A DNA stretch of 63,156 nt, filler included, from Trichomonas gallinae (GCA_008369845.1; 5 parts of 5 records of this genome joined end to end with filler, not necessarily neighbours in it); one strand, 5' to 3'. Positions 26,589 to 62,039 are shown, numbered from the whole stretch's first letter. The notes: a model not told the origin generated them from the letters alone. Made by a program: numbers and translations.

Positions 26589-27060
26589 ATGAAATACAAA
26601 ATTAGAACAGTTACCAATGATAGTATTTAAGTAGAGCTCAATGATACGAACACAGTTGGAGATCTTATCGATGAATCCTGCAAAATGCTGGGAAAATCAA
26701 CAGAAAACGTTTTTTTAATATATGCGACTAAAAAATTTACTGATAGAGCTCAAAAATTATCAGAACTTAACTGCATGGAAGGCAAGTTCATTATTCTATA
26801 CGTTTCTGCCCTTGCATCATCAACAAAATCTACCCAAGTTGCACAAAAACCAGTTCAATCAGCTGAAAATTCCTAAGAAAATGTGCAAAAGGAAGCTTAT
26901 TCAGATAAATCCAAAGAAAAGTAAGATAATAAAGGAAAAGAAGCAAATTTCCAATCTGTTCTTTCTGATTTAATAGCAATGGGCTTTCCCGCGTGCGAAC
27001 GAGCTCTCCGAGTCTCAGATGGGAATCAGAATTTGGCATTAAATATGTTTGTAGATTATT
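26589..27060 (+). pseudogene. UBL-UBA pseudogene with three in-frame TAA stops
   Basis: A single frame reads MKYKIRTVTNDSI*VELNDTNTVGDLI...VFLIYATKKF...ENS*ENVQ...KEK*DNK...LIAMGFPACERALRVSDGNQNLALNM; stops at 26628, 26874 and 26922. Confidence 0.8.
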
Positions 27061-27958
27061 ATTATAAATGTTATATTAGATTATGCGTAACCAACTTATT
27101 TTATGATTCAATAATTGGTATGGAAAAAATTGTGTTAGTTTTTTCCTCATCAATATCTTTTCTATTGCACTCTTGAATTATATCTTTTTGGTTACTTTTA
27201 CATAGCAGATATTGGCAAAAAGTGCTGCTTTACATGACAAAATAGATATAAATCTGTCATGTAAATTGTCAGAATGTATATAAGATAATTTTTTGAAACA
27301 TCGAAATTTCATTGCAAGAACAAGAAAAATGAAGTGATATTTTAGGCCAGCACAATCTCCAGCCATCGATTAATACTGCGTTGGCCTAGAAGATTGCGCC
27401 ATTTTTCTTGTAAAAAGTCTCTTGTTTGCAGATGGTTTGTAAGAAGATATTGGAATTGCATGAATGGATGCATCATGATATCACATTATATGGCCATTTA
27501 TAGAGGTTCAAGCCATTTTTATTAATAATTTAGATAAATATTAAAATTCTCATGATATTCTCAATTCAAACATAAAATATGGTGCTATATACAAATGTAG
27601 TTTTAGTCATATAACGATAGAAGTTTCGTTTTAGTTGGTTGGGAAAATTGAATTTGAATTTTGATTGTGCATAAAGAACGTTTATTTTTAAGTGTTGTTT
27701 CATTAAAAGGCTACTTAGAAGCACTCATTAGATCATAAATAAACATGGCAGGAAATCAACTCACTTTTTTATCAAAATGAACGTTTTCGAGCCCATAAAC
27801 ACTCCTATTGACACCAATATAAGCATCACAACATTCCAAATGATCATAATCGATGCCTCTCAAATATTTTCCCAAATGTCAAAAATGATTTTAAACGATT
27901 TCGCCGATTTTTCTACAAAAACAAGCTTATGGGTATGCACAGGAGTGATCAATCAAAG

Positions 27959-28024: not shown

Positions 28025-29467
28025 ATGGAGCCTATCCCTGAGTTTCCCTTCTACTTCAAGCAGCAGATTACAATGTTGAACAAAACTGGACGCACTGGTA
28101 TTGTTACATTTTGGTCAAAGCGTAGCTCAATTGAAGAATTACTCGAAAAATCATCAATGAACGACGCTGATAGACAATCTTTGATGTCTATTGGAAACTT
28201 ATATACATTCGATGGTATGAAATATATCATTCTTAACTCATTCCTTACAAATGATCTCAGTTCATACATTTTCTACGGAAATGATATGAACAAGACAATC
28301 AAAGCTGTTGAAGCAATCTTCACACACGGCTCTGATCAGTACAACGATATCAAAAATCAGTTAGAACAAAATATGACAGTTGATGTTGAACCAATCATGA
28401 AAACATTCGTTGACCGATACAAAGATCACGTATATTTCATCAATTTCGGCAATGAGCAGGAGTTTTTCGATACAATACACAAAGTTGCTGACGTTCCTCC
28501 AAGAAAAATAGAGTTAGCTTTTTATAAGTACGAATTTAACCAGCAAAGCAATCAATTCCCATCAGAAAAGTCCGCATATATCATAAGAGACAATGATTTA
28601 CAGAGATTGTGGAAGAAAGCTCTTCATAAAATTAATGAGTTCGGTGATTTTAAGAAGAGGAACTCTATTGGTGAATCTTACTACGAGCTTATTGATTTTG
28701 TCTATGTGCTTGAAGCAGAAAACAGAAAGATTGATACAATAAAAACAACTTGTGAATTTCCAATCAGTGAGGAGTTCCTTGAACATTATGTTCCTGAAAT
28801 TATCTCCCCAGAGGTTCCAAAGGGACTCTCATACACATACGGAAACAGAATCAATCGCCATTTAGATGCAACAATCGAGAAAATCAAGAAAGACATTGTC
28901 ACAAGACAAGCCCATATATCACTTTGGCTAGACAAAGATGTAGAATCTCCAAATCCTCCTTGTTTGACTGATATTGATTTTAATGTCCAGAAAAATATGC
29001 TTTTTATGACTTGCCACTTTAGATCTCATGATGTATTTGGCGCATTCCGTGCAAATATCTATGGATTGACAATGCTTCAGAGAAAAGTTGTATCTAAATT
29101 AGAAGGAATCAAGGAAGGCCCACTTATTGTTGTTGCTAACTCATCCCACTTCTACGAAAGAGACATGGATAGTGTTAAATCAATGACATTTGGCCCAGAA
29201 TGTAATGCAGATAAACGTGGCTACTTCACTGTTGGTGTTGAATGCATGACAATTGTGATTTGCCACTATGATTACGAAAATAAGCTCCTTCACAAATGGA
29301 CATTTGATGCACACACAATAGATTTCAAAATTATGGATGAAATCTCATTCTACATCACTGATGTTCACCATGCTATGTACTTAACAAAGGAGGTCTACAC
29401 AGCTGTTATCTGTGCACAAACGGGCCAAGAATATGTTCAGGATGAAACATGGCCGAAATTCAAGTAA
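28025..29467 (+). CDS. thyA: Prokaryotic-type thymidylate synthase fusion (MtrA-like N-terminal domain + ThyA fold + DUF4346-like C-terminus)
   Basis: YTYGNRI, TRQAHISLW, catalytic PPCL (Cys codon 28961), FRSHDVFGAFRAN, SSHFYERD; C-terminus DKRGYF...HHAMYLTKEV...GQEYVQD; N-terminus GIVTFWS...IGNLYT. Confidence 0.88.
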   Translation: MEPIPEFPFYFKQQITMLNKTGRTGIVTFWSKRSSIEELLEKSSMNDADRQSLMSIGNLYTFDGMKYIILNSFLTNDLSSYIFYGNDMNKTIKAVEAIFTHGSDQYNDIKNQLEQNMTVDVEPIMKTFVDRYKDHVYFINFGNEQEFFDTIHKVADVPPRKIELAFYKYEFNQQSNQFPSEKSAYIIRDNDLQRLWKKALHKINEFGDFKKRNSIGESYYELIDFVYVLEAENRKIDTIKTTCEFPISEEFLEHYVPEIISPEVPKGLSYTYGNRINRHLDATIEKIKKDIVTRQAHISLWLDKDVESPNPPCLTDIDFNVQKNMLFMTCHFRSHDVFGAFRANIYGLTMLQRKVVSKLEGIKEGPLIVVANSSHFYERDMDSVKSMTFGPECNADKRGYFTVGVECMTIVICHYDYENKLLHKWTFDAHTIDFKIMDEISFYITDVHHAMYLTKEVYTAVICAQTGQEYVQDETWPKFK

Positions 29468-29913
29468 TATCATTCATATTTTTCATTCACGGACTTAAAT
29501 TTTCTATGTTTATACTTGGTATATAATATATAAATAAATTAACATGCATAATATCATTAAATTTTTTTTTCCATTATTTTCATCTTTTGTAAATTATTTT
29601 AGATTCACATCCATATATTATCGATGTGTTCATAAAGTTTCCACGATGCAAAATTAGTCAAATCCTCAATGAAAATATTTTATTGATATATTTCTTTATT
29701 TATAATGATAAATTGCGATTGAAAAGTTTTTTATTAGGATTGTTTGCTGTTGTGAAGATTCTTGCCATCAAAATCGCTTTTTGTAAATGAATATAAAATA
29801 TTACAGTGACCCCTTATTGAAGCCTGTAAAGGGTATCGAAGCCGGAAACGGTTTTCTCTCAATTTTGAATACTTTGGCAAAATGGTCGGGAAAATTATAG
29901 ATCTAGAATGATA

Positions 29914-30013
29914 NNNNNNNNNNNNNNNNNNNNNNNNNNNNNNNNNNNNNNNNNNNNTTAATTAATTAANNNNNNNNNNNNNNNNNNNNNNNNNNNNNNN
30001 NNNNNNNNNNNNN
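29914..30013. other. Assembly gap with artificial linker
   Basis: 44 N + TTAATTAATTAA + 44 N; the linker has stops in all six frames. Confidence 0.97.
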
Positions 30014-31006: not shown

Positions 31007-32569
31007 TTACATTGCTTCGCCAGGTCCGTCTGGTATATCGAACTCGTTGGCGAATGGATCATCTACATCGTTGCCGTAGATAGGATTATCGTTTTCAACA
31101 ACCGGTGAATCATTTGGAATGTTTTCTGGCTGCTCGAACATCATATCTGGGATATCCGCTTTGCGTGTTGCCATGTAAACGATGCCAGCAATGAGGCCAA
31201 CAGCTGCTACACCTGCAACTCCTGCGATGATTAAACCTGCTGGACTTGTATCTGGGCTAGATTCCTTTCCAATAACAGCGCCTCCGTTCTTAGCACCGTC
31301 TGCATTATCTGATTGCTGCTTGATGATTGTGCTTATATCGATGACCGGTCCATCAGGTGCAATTTGATTTGATTCTGTGTAAACGATTGGATTGTATTCT
31401 TCGTCTGGTGTTCTGTTAGGAGTTGGATTTGCGGATGGCAGAGGTGATCGTGATGGCGATGGCTTTGGTGTTGGATTTGGAGATTGAGGTGGTGGTGCTG
31501 TTTGTGGTGGATGATCTGGTAGAGCTGTTTGAGTTGGCGGTGGGGATGGTGCTGGTGAGCGTGCTGGAGTAGGTTCAGGTGATGGAGCTGGTGATTGAGC
31601 TGGAGTTTGTGGTGGTAATGGAGTTGGATCTGGTGGATTTGCAACCTTCTCTTGTACACAGTTGTAAAGCTGATAGAAATAAAGGTTGAGGTTAAAATAT
31701 CTTGGATAGCACTCAGCAAAGTTAGCTGCGCCGTACATCCAACCAAGTCCACCAACTTTCTGTCCTCTGTTATTCTCGTAGCAGCAGTTCTGGAGCGTTA
31801 AGTATCCAATGAGCCAGAAGACGCCGTTATACTGACATCCACACTCGCGAATGACGCAATTATTCCATGTAACGGAACCAGCATTGTTTTCGACAAGGAT
31901 ACAGCGGTCAGTTGCAAAGCACTTATAGTGGTTGCAGTACTTAACATTGTAAGAACCAGCGCTGTACACAATTACGCCAATGCCATTCGGTGCATTGTTT
32001 TCAGCAACATTGCAATATTTGATGCTAGATTGTATGCACACATCGGCAACAGCATACCCACAGCTTCCAATGTTCGTATTCTTTGATATATTGCAACTGT
32101 CAATTTTGATTTCACCGCGTTTGGCGTAAAATGTGCCGGTGTAGTCTCTAATGACCTTGCCACAGCCTGTATACGTGCTATCGAGGATATAATTCTTCTG
32201 ATATCCATTAAAGCCAACAGCTGTGTAAGATGTCTGGCCATAGTAGGCTCCTGAGACTGATTGGAAGCACATCTTGGACTGTACAATGGATCCATCGTTA
32301 GTAAACAAGATTGCACCGCCACCATCTTTGTATGGCGTGTGAACGTCATGAATGAATATGTTTTCTGTGAGAAGTTTAACTGTTGGTGGAAGTCCCCACA
32401 TCGTAATTGCTCGATATGACTGACTAAATTCGCAATTGTGGACATAATAGTATCCAGGCCTCTGCGATTTATCGAAACCTAAGGATGTTAGTGTCTCGTA
32501 CCTTGTTACATCTGGGTAATAAGTGTCCCAATCAGTAACGAGTTTGTAGGTTATTAAACCAAGATTCAT
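31007..32569 (-). CDS. Type I surface protein: beta-helix-like ectodomain, Pro-rich stalk, TM helix and NPxY/acidic cytosolic tail
   Basis: GGGAI and CNxxxN repeats; P/S/T-rich linker; TM GLIIAGVAGVAAVGLIAGIVYMA; tail ENDNPIYG...DDPFANEF. Confidence 0.85.
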   Translation of the reverse strand: MNLGLITYKLVTDWDTYYPDVTRYETLTSLGFDKSQRPGYYYVHNCEFSQSYRAITMWGLPPTVKLLTENIFIHDVHTPYKDGGGAILFTNDGSIVQSKMCFQSVSGAYYGQTSYTAVGFNGYQKNYILDSTYTGCGKVIRDYTGTFYAKRGEIKIDSCNISKNTNIGSCGYAVADVCIQSSIKYCNVAENNAPNGIGVIVYSAGSYNVKYCNHYKCFATDRCILVENNAGSVTWNNCVIRECGCQYNGVFWLIGYLTLQNCCYENNRGQKVGGLGWMYGAANFAECYPRYFNLNLYFYQLYNCVQEKVANPPDPTPLPPQTPAQSPAPSPEPTPARSPAPSPPPTQTALPDHPPQTAPPPQSPNPTPKPSPSRSPLPSANPTPNRTPDEEYNPIVYTESNQIAPDGPVIDISTIIKQQSDNADGAKNGGAVIGKESSPDTSPAGLIIAGVAGVAAVGLIAGIVYMATRKADIPDMMFEQPENIPNDSPVVENDNPIYGNDVDDPFANEFDIPDGPGEAM

Positions 32570-47583: not shown

Positions 47584-47683
47584 NNNNNNNNNNNNNNNNN
47601 NNNNNNNNNNNNNNNNNNNNNNNNNNNTTAATTAATTAANNNNNNNNNNNNNNNNNNNNNNNNNNNNNNNNNNNNNNNNNNNN
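47584..47683. other. Assembly gap with artificial linker
   Basis: N44-TTAATTAATTAA-N44. Confidence 0.97.
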
Positions 47684-54696: not shown

Positions 54697-55497
54697 TTAA
54701 TTTTCAAAGAGATATGATGGAGCACGAATACGACGAAGACCTTTGGAGATATCATTTGATTCGAAACATTCCCACTTTGTTGGTAGAAGTTTGAGGATTT
54801 CTGGGTCTTTGACAACTTCTTTCATCTTTGTAACAGGATTGATGATTGTTCTTCTATGGTTATCGTTTGGTTGATTATTTGGAAGTTTTCTGGCTTCTTC
54901 TTCGATGGCTCCGTACATTTCACTTGGAATAAACTTAGCAACTGTTGGTGAAAAGATCATTGAAACGGCTATTTGCATTGAGACAAGGATATCATTAATA
55001 TTTAATGCAGGCGGAATTCTTCTGATTTCAACTGTCTTGGAACTGCTGACCCATGACTTCTTAACCTTAGTTAAAATAACAATAACATCACCTAAAACAA
55101 AATTGAACGAAACTGATATCGTATCACATTTTACATTGTCGAATTTTGCACTTGGCTTCATGAAGAAGGAAAATATATTGAACTGACCTCTTTTGTTGTC
55201 ATAGATTGAGTCAAAAGTCATGTCCTTATTGATATCCATTAATACTCCCATGTCAGAAACCATTTCTCGTGTAAATTTCAACATTTCAACCATTTCCGAT
55301 CTATATGAGCCAACGATTGGTGCTTGAGCGTTAAGGTCATCAACTACAACATCAATGTATCCAGGTAAATCTTCCATATCTACAGTCTGTGATTCGGCAG
55401 ATGTTGTATAATGGTATTGTGAATAACTATTACCATGTAGCTGCCCACTCTGCATCAGTCTTTTCACAGCTAAAAGAAATAGAGAAGTTTCAGGCAT
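54697..55497 (-). CDS. Hypothetical protein, distant paralog of the divergently transcribed gene at 56113
   Basis: 266-aa ORF; colinear similarity to its neighbour (see findings). Confidence 0.8.
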   Translation of the reverse strand: MPETSLFLLAVKRLMQSGQLHGNSYSQYHYTTSAESQTVDMEDLPGYIDVVVDDLNAQAPIVGSYRSEMVEMLKFTREMVSDMGVLMDINKDMTFDSIYDNKRGQFNIFSFFMKPSAKFDNVKCDTISVSFNFVLGDVIVILTKVKKSWVSSSKTVEIRRIPPALNINDILVSMQIAVSMIFSPTVAKFIPSEMYGAIEEEARKLPNNQPNDNHRRTIINPVTKMKEVVKDPEILKLLPTKWECFESNDISKGLRRIRAPSYLFEN

Positions 55498-56112: not shown

Positions 56113-56894
56113 ATGTGGTGGTTCACTGCTGTTATGGCCGCCGTTAGTTTTGCCAATGGGTTTATGAACAAGTTCTTGGCAACATATGGCGCGCAAGCAG
56201 GGGGAAGAGGATACTACACACAAGAAGGATTTTATAATTATTATTCTAGTTCTTTCCTCCATGAGCAAACAGTTCCTGCAAAGTTCATGGATAAATTCTT
56301 AGAAATAGTCATAAAACATTGTGTTCGAGACCAATCGGCAGCAATCGCTTCAAAAAGTCAAGAGTTACTTGATTATCTGCAAACAATTAAATATTTTAGC
56401 TCATATCAATACGGAAAGTGTGTACATAGTGTTAACACTGTTGCCTACAACAAAAACAAAGGAGAACTGTTCCTTAAAATTGTGACCTTCGTTCCTTACA
56501 TTGTCATGGTCAATGGTGAAAAACAAAAAGCAGTCAAAACCAATTTGCTGTATCTCTCAGTCCATTTCGAAATGGCGAAGGATTTCATTATCCTAGCGAA
56601 AGTGAAGGCGAACTGGTTCAAGGGTGTTTATAAAGAGGAATTACGCTTCATTGACAAAAAAGAAATCACGAAGAATACCATCACTCAAGCGATTGCTATG
56701 GCTCTGGCACCATGCATTCTCGGTGTTGTTAAGATGCCAGCAGCTTTCGTCACACAGATTGAGATTATGGCGAAAACACAAGATGCACCATATGCTGTAG
56801 CTGAAGGAACAGGTAATCCAGTCCCAGCCGAATATGATTTTTGGAGGTGGATTTCAGAGATGAAGGATCACAACGACAATCCACAGTTAGTAAA
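56113..56894 (+). CDS. Hypothetical protein with a putative signal peptide; 3' end lost in the gap
   Basis: First ATG gives MWWFTAVMAAVSFA; frame is open up to the N gap. Confidence 0.8.
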
Positions 56895-56994
56895 NNNNNN
56901 NNNNNNNNNNNNNNNNNNNNNNNNNNNNNNNNNNNNNNTTAATTAATTAANNNNNNNNNNNNNNNNNNNNNNNNNNNNNNNNNNNNNNNNNNNN
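56895..56994. other. Assembly gap with artificial linker
   Basis: N44-TTAATTAATTAA-N44. Confidence 0.97.
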
Positions 56995-61939: not shown

Positions 61940-62039
61940 NNNNNNNNNNNNNNNNNNNNNNNNNNNNNNNNNNNNNNNNNNNNTTAATTAATTAANNNNN
62001 NNNNNNNNNNNNNNNNNNNNNNNNNNNNNNNNNNNNNNN
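61940..62039. other. Assembly gap with artificial linker
   Basis: N44-TTAATTAATTAA-N44. Confidence 0.97.

Follow-up and report, generated by a model that had tools for sequence, protein, structure and literature searches.

A three-domain thymidylate synthase-like gene in Trichomonas gallinae, a candidate route to dTMP related to a bacterial fusion that replaces ThyX

Could a trichomonad make its own dTMP? To our knowledge, trichomonads are classically said to lack thymidylate synthase (TS) and dihydrofolate reductase (DHFR), and Wang in 1983 and Wang and Cheng in 1984 reportedly detected neither TS nor DHFR activity in T. foetus and T. vaginalis and saw no thymidine nucleotides formed from uridine. 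These parasites are treated as strict thymidine salvagers, and drug ideas build on that. A passage of a 2023 paper (PMC10474468) describes T. vaginalis as having no de novo purine and pyrimidine synthesis. An intact TS-family gene that is kept across parabasalids makes the salvage-only view directly testable, and we analysed such a gene in Trichomonas gallinae.

The gene lies in the window, i.e. the whole 63,156-nucleotide stretch of T. gallinae DNA (GCA_008369845.1) that was analysed. An earlier note, made from the sequence alone, had described an intact 480-aa ORF with ThyA catalytic motifs, a nucleophile codon at 28961 and host-like composition and codons, and all of this agrees with our data. 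The frame is uninterrupted; YTYG stands at residue 270, RSHD at 333-336, N344 follows, HFY is at 375-377 and the Cys of PPC is residue 313. GC and GC3 are both 0.36, and in codon likeness to the others the ORF ranks 4th of the 24 window ORFs. The note had also called the protein a prokaryote-type fusion, which is borne out, but it missed the MtrA-fold and DUF4346 domains, the bacterial carriers without FolA and the ciliate-type copies. The features are as follows.

28025..29467, plus strand: uninterrupted ORF of 480 aa for a three-domain thymidylate synthase-like protein, ortholog of TVAG_343240 and TRFO_07675
28034..28513, plus strand: N-terminal MtrA-fold domain, aa 4-163 (VIA-align to 5laa with Z 13.9, rmsd 2.5 and 137 aligned; profile E 1.7e-13)
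28568..29194, plus strand: short archaeal-type TS core, aa 182-390, with C313, R294, R333, S334, D336, N344, H375 and Y377
28961..28963, plus strand: codon of the catalytic Cys313, invariant in 136/136 aligned family members
29210..29443, plus strand: C-terminal PterinBD-DUF4346 domain, aa 396-473, with D396 and G399 invariant and H449 in 135/136
28032..29492, plus strand: 1461-nt contig of run X2, opening 7 bases into the ORF and running on for 25 bases beyond the stop

Pfam reports only two families in the protein, i.e. Thymidylat_synt at 279-386 (E 2.3e-13, 50.4 bits versus a cut-off of 24.3) and PterinBD-DUF4346 at 396-473 (E 1.2e-11). These matches, like the TIGR03283 match below, exceed chance by a wide margin. 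Both the fold and the Pfam score, which is over the cut-off, place the protein in the ThyA superfamily (PF00303). The MtrA family PF04208 matches a relative (P0012) and has no Pfam match in the window protein, which resembles MtrA (5laa) in the fold of residues 4-163 and differs from it in having no membrane anchor and only 13% identity. An AlphaFold2 model was built from a 26-row alignment; its mean pLDDT of 87.7 makes the single domains reliable, whereas with a pTM of 0.51 their placement relative to one another is not. The best structural matches of the TS core are AfhB (9iqc, Z 22.8, the top Foldseek and VIA match), MilA (5jnh, 20.3) and ThyA (19.1). For the DUF4346 domain no known structure stood out (Z up to 6), a result that is uninformative about its fold.

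C313, P312, R333, N344, E221, Y255, Y272 and R275 are invariant in all 136 aligned members, and D336, H375 and Y377 are present in all 87 parabasalid, ciliate-type and unnamed metagenomic members. The window protein has the three domains in the order MtrA-like, TS and DUF4346 together with the invariant residues of the family. G57, Y60 and G64 of the MtrA fold are, like D396 and G399 of DUF4346, invariant in the 136 proteins, which together with the near-invariance of H449 indicates that both added domains are under strong constraint. No core catalytic residue, and none of the invariant residues in the two added domains, is lost in any of the nine parabasalid-type proteins. In the alignment to solved TS structures, C313, R294, R333, S334, D336, N344, H375 and Y377 correspond to E. 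coli C146, R126, R166, S167, D169, N177, H207 and Y209, where R126, R166, S167, H207 and Y209 carry the numbers that we take to be those of the E. coli enzyme.

Several sites that define canonical ThyA are changed: the second phosphate Arg (R127) is Q295, H147 is L314, Q165 is F332 and the folate-packing F176 is A343, with R294 being kept. An R21-like R212 is present in 4/9 parabasalid-type proteins. Canonical ThyA and DHFR-TS share with the window protein the fold (Z 17.8-19.1) and the catalytic Cys, Arg, Ser, Asp, Asn, His and Tyr, whereas the canonical ThyA model (TIGR03284) scores 32.8 bits versus a cut-off of 108.35, and the DHFR domain of eukaryotic DHFR-TS is absent, the N-terminal domain here having the MtrA fold. 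The top NCBIfam match is the methanogen-type TS TIGR03283 (residues 186-383, E 1.6e-32), covering model positions 2-200 of 201 with the pattern YTYG.R, PCL, FRS.D, N and H.Y. Its 112.7 bits are below the cut-off of 174.55, and the window protein has two extra domains and occurs in eukaryotes. By these profile scores TIGR03283 is the closest relative of the TS core, and the protein is not a member of it. Membership of canonical ThyA, DHFR-TS and TIGR03283 was rejected, as the curated cut-offs are not reached and there is no DHFR domain.

The same domains in the same order, with common invariant residues, make up a prokaryotic fusion that is 23-29% identical to the window protein over the whole length and whose Atlas clusters have members in Myxococcota, Cyanobacteriota and Chloroflexota. 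The window copy differs in being eukaryotic and in belonging to a subclade with ciliate-type and unnamed metagenomic proteins. With P0021 as the query we fetched 16 bacterial loci and then searched whole genomes. The fusions were counted with the full-length profile; DUF4346 alone missed the fusion in genome G127. Five carrier genomes all have SHMT, and FolA, ThyX and dNK (0/5) were not found in any of the five; PF00303 matched the fusion in four of them, with a weaker second match in G003. The genome G001 is a single 8.2-Mb contig, in which the fusion is the sole TS-family match, SHMT is present and a whole-genome search found no dNK.

Two larger samples show how the fusion is distributed. 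In the order of G004, 75 of 81 genomes have the fusion (some copies partial or frameshifted), one has ThyX and none has FolA, and the search for thymidine kinase gave one marginal match (22 bits). The best PF00303 score in this order is 51 bits, so there is no canonical ThyA. Among 53 genomes of the class of G001, 27 have the fusion (two of them broken), 22 have ThyX, one has both and five have neither; FolA is in 0/53 and no protein passes the TIGR03284 cut-off (0/53). ThyX thus occurs in 1/27 of the fusion genomes versus 21/26 of the others, with a Fisher p of 4e-9 that overstates independence because bacterial genomes are kin and of uncertain completeness. Thymidine-kinase matches were observed in 17 genomes of this class, all partial at 20-25 bits in frames of 360-416 aa. 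A bare TS core of ~285 aa is present in 16 genomes without the fusion and coexists with ThyX in 13 of the 16, which indicates that only the three-domain form displaces ThyX.

Cells without ThyX, canonical ThyA and thymidine kinase must obtain dTMP in some other way, and we saw no candidate besides the fusion. We conclude that the fusion takes the place of ThyX in bacteria and that its job is likely dTMP synthesis without FolA. It would thus share its probable job with ThyX (PF02511), an unrelated family that is nearly mutually exclusive with the fusion in bacteria and is not matched in the window protein. ThyX and the fusion do co-occur in G127 and G084, and 15 of the 81 genomes in the order of G004 have a second short TS-fold ORF. 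The displacement of ThyX in whole bacterial groups without FolA and thymidine kinase makes the family a biochemical puzzle, and T. vaginalis, in contrast to most bacterial carriers, can be grown in culture and manipulated genetically.

Two variants of the architecture were observed on the way. A stand-alone short TS-fold protein of ~270-290 aa is encoded in G085-G109 (class of G001) and in 15 genomes of the order of G004, mostly alongside ThyX or the fusion. A version of ~800 aa (G129:C11 and G130:C27) carries a second TS core and a DUF4346 copy in one frame. The neighbours of the bacterial fusions (87 proteins in 14 loci) include no conserved folate or B12 genes, and a dCMP deaminase gene is near the fusion in 2/14 loci. 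In those places, L001:4108-5240 and L002:4107-5262, dCMP deaminase and HAD hydrolase genes lie just upstream of the fusion, and L003 and L011 likewise have a HAD gene close to the fusion.

Based on these gene patterns, the trichomonad enzyme probably converts dUMP into dTMP through the usual covalent TS mechanism, with no standard dihydrofolate reductase involved. Two TS cores would pair, as in established TS chemistry, with R333, S334 and R294 of the partner holding the phosphate; N344 would select uracil, and H375 and Y377 would hold the deoxyribose. C313 would attack C6, the methylene would come from methylene-tetrahydrofolate and the product, to judge from the bacteria, would be dTMP. Since T. 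vaginalis has a class II ribonucleotide reductase, according to a section of PMC3019208, the enzyme would join it in trichomonads to give thymidylate from salvaged uridine or cytidine, as a dTMP route that would run beside thymidine salvage, conceivably under certain conditions only. An active enzyme would be set apart from human TS by its two added domains and by the folate-site residues, and the earlier note's idea of a drug target hinges on such activity.

The partner of canonical ThyA, a FolA-type DHFR, was not found in the two sets of bacterial genomes searched (81 and 53, the fusion carriers among them), and the likeliest explanation would be that the added domains serve the reducing step. 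We consider it plausible, at somewhat short of even chances, that these domains act as a unit which regenerates the reduced pterin or delivers a reducing equivalent, standing in for FolA much as the DHFR part does in DHFR-TS. The ThyX genomes in the class of G001 are also without FolA, which may mean no more than that these bacteria rely on a different reductase.

The earlier note had proposed an unrecognised route to dTMP. dTMP synthesis is the best-supported job in view of the bacterial gene patterns, but "unrecognised" is too strong: the T. vaginalis ortholog already goes by "thymidylate synthase family" at NCBI (KAI5529241.1), and a table of transfer entries in Alsmark et al. 2013 (PMC4053834) lists its accession XP_001325718.1 as "No_tree", a label whose meaning we infer, the tabulated entry carrying no TS annotation. 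In the literature covered, which leaves subscription journals mostly outside, no paper presents the gene or the three-domain family as a dTMP route and none mentions TVAG_343240 or DUF4346, and no measured activity was found there for any family member. The gene's database name is known already; the prokaryotic fusion is undescribed in that literature, and the family as a whole is uncharacterised. The eukaryotic members of the three-domain TS family and the clade they share are new here.

The absence of FolA (0/81 and 0/53) could also be read in another way. The TS core might be a dUMP hydroxymethylase, in which water and not hydride quenches the methylene intermediate, so that the folate stays unoxidised and no DHFR is needed; hydroxymethyl-dUMP would be either the product or an intermediate that is reduced in a second step. 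The E. coli TS positions C146, L143, D169 and N177 are numbered in an excerpt of PMC13326640, where D169 with N177 is given as the dUMP-methylating pattern, D169N with N177D as the dCMP hydroxylase signature and a change of L143 to D or E as the pyrimidine hydroxymethylase pattern. The position of L143 is polar here (N310), and all 24 ciliate-type proteins have an acidic residue there (E in 21, D in 3), so that by the rule in that excerpt hydroxymethylation has a place among the candidates; the structural match to MilA fits this reading as well. The same position varies elsewhere in the family, being Y in 34 of the 54 unnamed metagenomic members and N, S, K or H in prokaryotes, and the bacterial carriers have no other recognisable source of dTMP. 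We regard a hydroxymethylase as unlikely. The known enzymes AfhB, MilA and T4 dCMP hydroxymethylase resemble the window protein in their compact core (Z 17.5 for the T4 enzyme) and the polar L143 position, and they differ in acting on cytosine nucleotides (N177D), whereas N177 and D169 are kept here.

dTMP synthesis could be the job in bacteria and yet have been given up in the parasite, whose copy may serve in another job or rarely work while the cell lives on thymidine salvage. The classically reported negative assays fit such a change, as does the long parabasalid branch in our tree (1.15), along which the function may have drifted, and the R127-equivalent is Q or H in 9/9 parabasalid-type proteins. 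In a 2026 transcriptome paper (PMC13164389), the T. vaginalis gene TVAGG3_0320270, named "thymidylate synthase family", is transcribed, with a logFC of 7.0 after peptide stress at a logCPM of 10.7. If this gene is TVAG_343240, as its name may indicate, the strong induction under stress only would be in keeping with a rarely working enzyme. The retention of the core catalytic and added-domain invariant residues in 9/9 proteins, purifying selection and the class II ribonucleotide reductase of T. vaginalis, which would supply dUMP, all argue for a working dUMP-to-dTMP enzyme, and we doubt that its job has changed.

The MtrA fold brings cobalamin to mind. A corrinoid bound by this domain could pass on a methyl group or carry the reducing step, with His449 of DUF4346 as a possible ligand, and T. 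vaginalis does have a B12-type ribonucleotide reductase. In the part of PMC4915002 that describes MtrA, His84 and Glu54 are the cobalt-ligand pair and G57 and N64 lie in the nucleotide-tail pocket. The fold match is to cobalamin-bound MtrA, and G64 and N71 of the window protein align with G57 and N64 of that pocket, but neither His nor Glu is found at the columns aligned to His84 and Glu54, and the TS core keeps the full set for methylene transfer; a corrinoid role is improbable. It is more improbable still that the TS core hydroxylates pyrimidines with the help of flavin, as does phage AfhB, its top structural match, since the D169N and N177D that are diagnostic in the PMC13326640 excerpt are absent, D336 and N344 standing in their place, and the AfhB reaction requires oxygen whereas the hosts are anaerobes.

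A separate question is whether the gene belongs to the trichomonad. The first homolog search returned 28 proteins with a near-identical Logan copy on top, and two Logan copies differ from the window protein by 3 and 5 residues. The T. vaginalis protein TVAG_343240 (71% identity) is encoded on a 34.7-Mb contig and the Tritrichomonas foetus protein TRFO_07675 (41%) on a 168-kb contig; five further unnamed proteins are 35-58% identical. The X2 contig over 28032-29492 has 59 differences, and 37 among the 40 listed are synonymous; the three residues that change in it are also those at which the protein P0002 departs from the window protein. Runs X3, X4, X5 and X6 gave no matching contig. With these orthologs, synonymous differences and host-like codons, the gene is a host gene as judged from sequence comparison. 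The ends of the X2 contig fit a transcript, a weak hint as the RNA status of the run is itself guessed. A 5-mer 13 bases upstream of the TS ORF, which we take to be Inr-like, is uninformative, preceding 17 of the 24 window ORFs.

The earlier note had placed the gene on the same contig as eukaryotic genes, and Pfam indeed finds a kinase, a PCH2/TRIP13 ATPase and an adaptin on the same gap-free piece (1-29913), but the adjacency of the kinase is uncorroborated, as the contigs of X1 and X2, two related runs, both leave the window at 27046. This point falls inside a UBA-containing pseudogene with three in-frame stops, which suggests a strain-specific rearrangement or a mis-join just upstream of the TS gene and leaves the gene's host status, for which the orthologs are the basis, untouched. 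The pseudogene, a degraded ubiquitin-like/UBA gene, spans 26589-27068 (+) with stops at 26628, 26874 and 26922. The window is a scaffold put together across four artificial joins, each marked by an identical 44N-TTAATTAATTAA-44N linker, at 29914-30013, 47584-47683, 56895-56994 and 61940-62039. A high-copy repeat with a depth over 1000 in X1 lies at about 29836-29910.

That bacterial or symbiont DNA was mis-assembled onto the host scaffold is hardly credible: the gene is only 450 bases from an N-linker, the related contigs diverge at 27046 and no long X1 contig covers it (possibly a filter effect), but the orthologs lie on the 34.7-Mb and 168-kb contigs, the two Logan copies join them in one clade (100/100), the codons are host-like and the prokaryotic relatives are just 23-34% identical.

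Where did the gene come from? The family was sampled with three word-index searches, two metagenome scans and one genome scan; P0049 (761 aa, no family likeness by eye) was left out as a clustering error. A metagenome scan with the window protein alone found no relatives among 593 stretches, and a scan with a nine-protein alignment found 72 loci. Six of the loci (L020-L022, L024, L026 and L027) carry the same full fusion on contigs of 1.7-3.2 kb with GC 0.20-0.28 that end in CCCCAAT repeats at one or both ends. This repeat and gene-sized chromosomes with a mean of 2.3 kb mark rumen ciliates, as stated in a portion of bioRxiv 10.1101/2022.01.05.474053. In the six fusions an insert of ~45 aa enlarges the TS core, and the L143 position holds E or D. 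A search from L020 returned 110 proteins, of which 24 are 77-99% identical on contigs of 1.5-3.2 kb; one cluster has 271 members.

In a quick tree of 99 rows, 68 rows fall in one clade (SH-aLRT 100), i.e. 7 parabasalid-type, 7 ciliate-type and 54 unnamed metagenomic proteins. A mixture-model tree of 38 rows hand-chosen from the 99, in which the midpoint root is for drawing only and several rows have odd composition, gives 100/100 for the clade of parabasalid, ciliate-type and unnamed proteins. Its six parabasalid-type rows, three of them named or from the window, form one clade (100/100). Four Pacebacteria-like proteins, of which only P0166 is named Pacebacteria, adjoin the eukaryote-containing clade with a branch support of 90/96. 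The protein is a prokaryote-type fusion and not a eukaryotic TS or DHFR-TS, as the earlier note had anticipated. No cyanobacterial donor is indicated, and the nearest named prokaryotic protein is from Pacebacteria; the donor is unsure because the family sampling was limited to the searches and scans above.

The gene was likely acquired from prokaryotes, and the note's picture of a laterally acquired and domesticated gene stands, the acquisition being old, with orthologs in two named parabasalid genera, purifying selection and a transcript-shaped contig. The shared clade may reflect transfer between eukaryotes, two separate acquisitions from a single unsampled donor or carriage by viruses. Viral scans with P0010, P0131 and P0147 found no relatives, a scan with alignment A5 found one distant locus (L089, 23%), and 21 phage records match the TS core only at 24-31%; these searches appear to give no support for a viral donor. 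The distant locus, L089:9941-11380, encodes a 479-aa fusion on an 81-kb IMG/VR contig. Eight unnamed members of the eukaryote-containing clade (P0117, P0119, P0131, P0139, P0147, P0152, P0155 and P0163) are encoded on contigs of 119-315 kb, which could be from giant viruses, jumbo phages, bacteria or other protists; their protein clusters gave none of them a name.

We speculate, tentatively and with more doubt than belief, that the family is a third kind of TS, in which a ThyA core has its reducing step served by its own MtrA-fold and DUF4346 domains and by neither FolA nor ThyX, and that parabasalids and rumen ciliates received one branch of it from Patescibacteria-like prokaryotes, which left Trichomonas able to convert dUMP into dTMP. 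If true, this would overturn the textbook thymidine auxotrophy of Trichomonas with an enzyme that has no human counterpart, in anaerobic eukaryotes of at least two supergroups. The clade shared with the ciliate-type copies would mean that one metabolic gene has spread among unrelated anaerobic protists.

Beyond the first linker, a 520-aa ORF at 31007-32569 (-) has a Pro-rich repeat stalk and a hydrophobic C-terminal segment, with no Pfam match at E 0.01, and looks like a trichomonad surface protein. The ORFs at 54697-55497 and 56113-56946 are neighbours of ~270 aa each that lie head to head and have similar-looking C-terminal halves.
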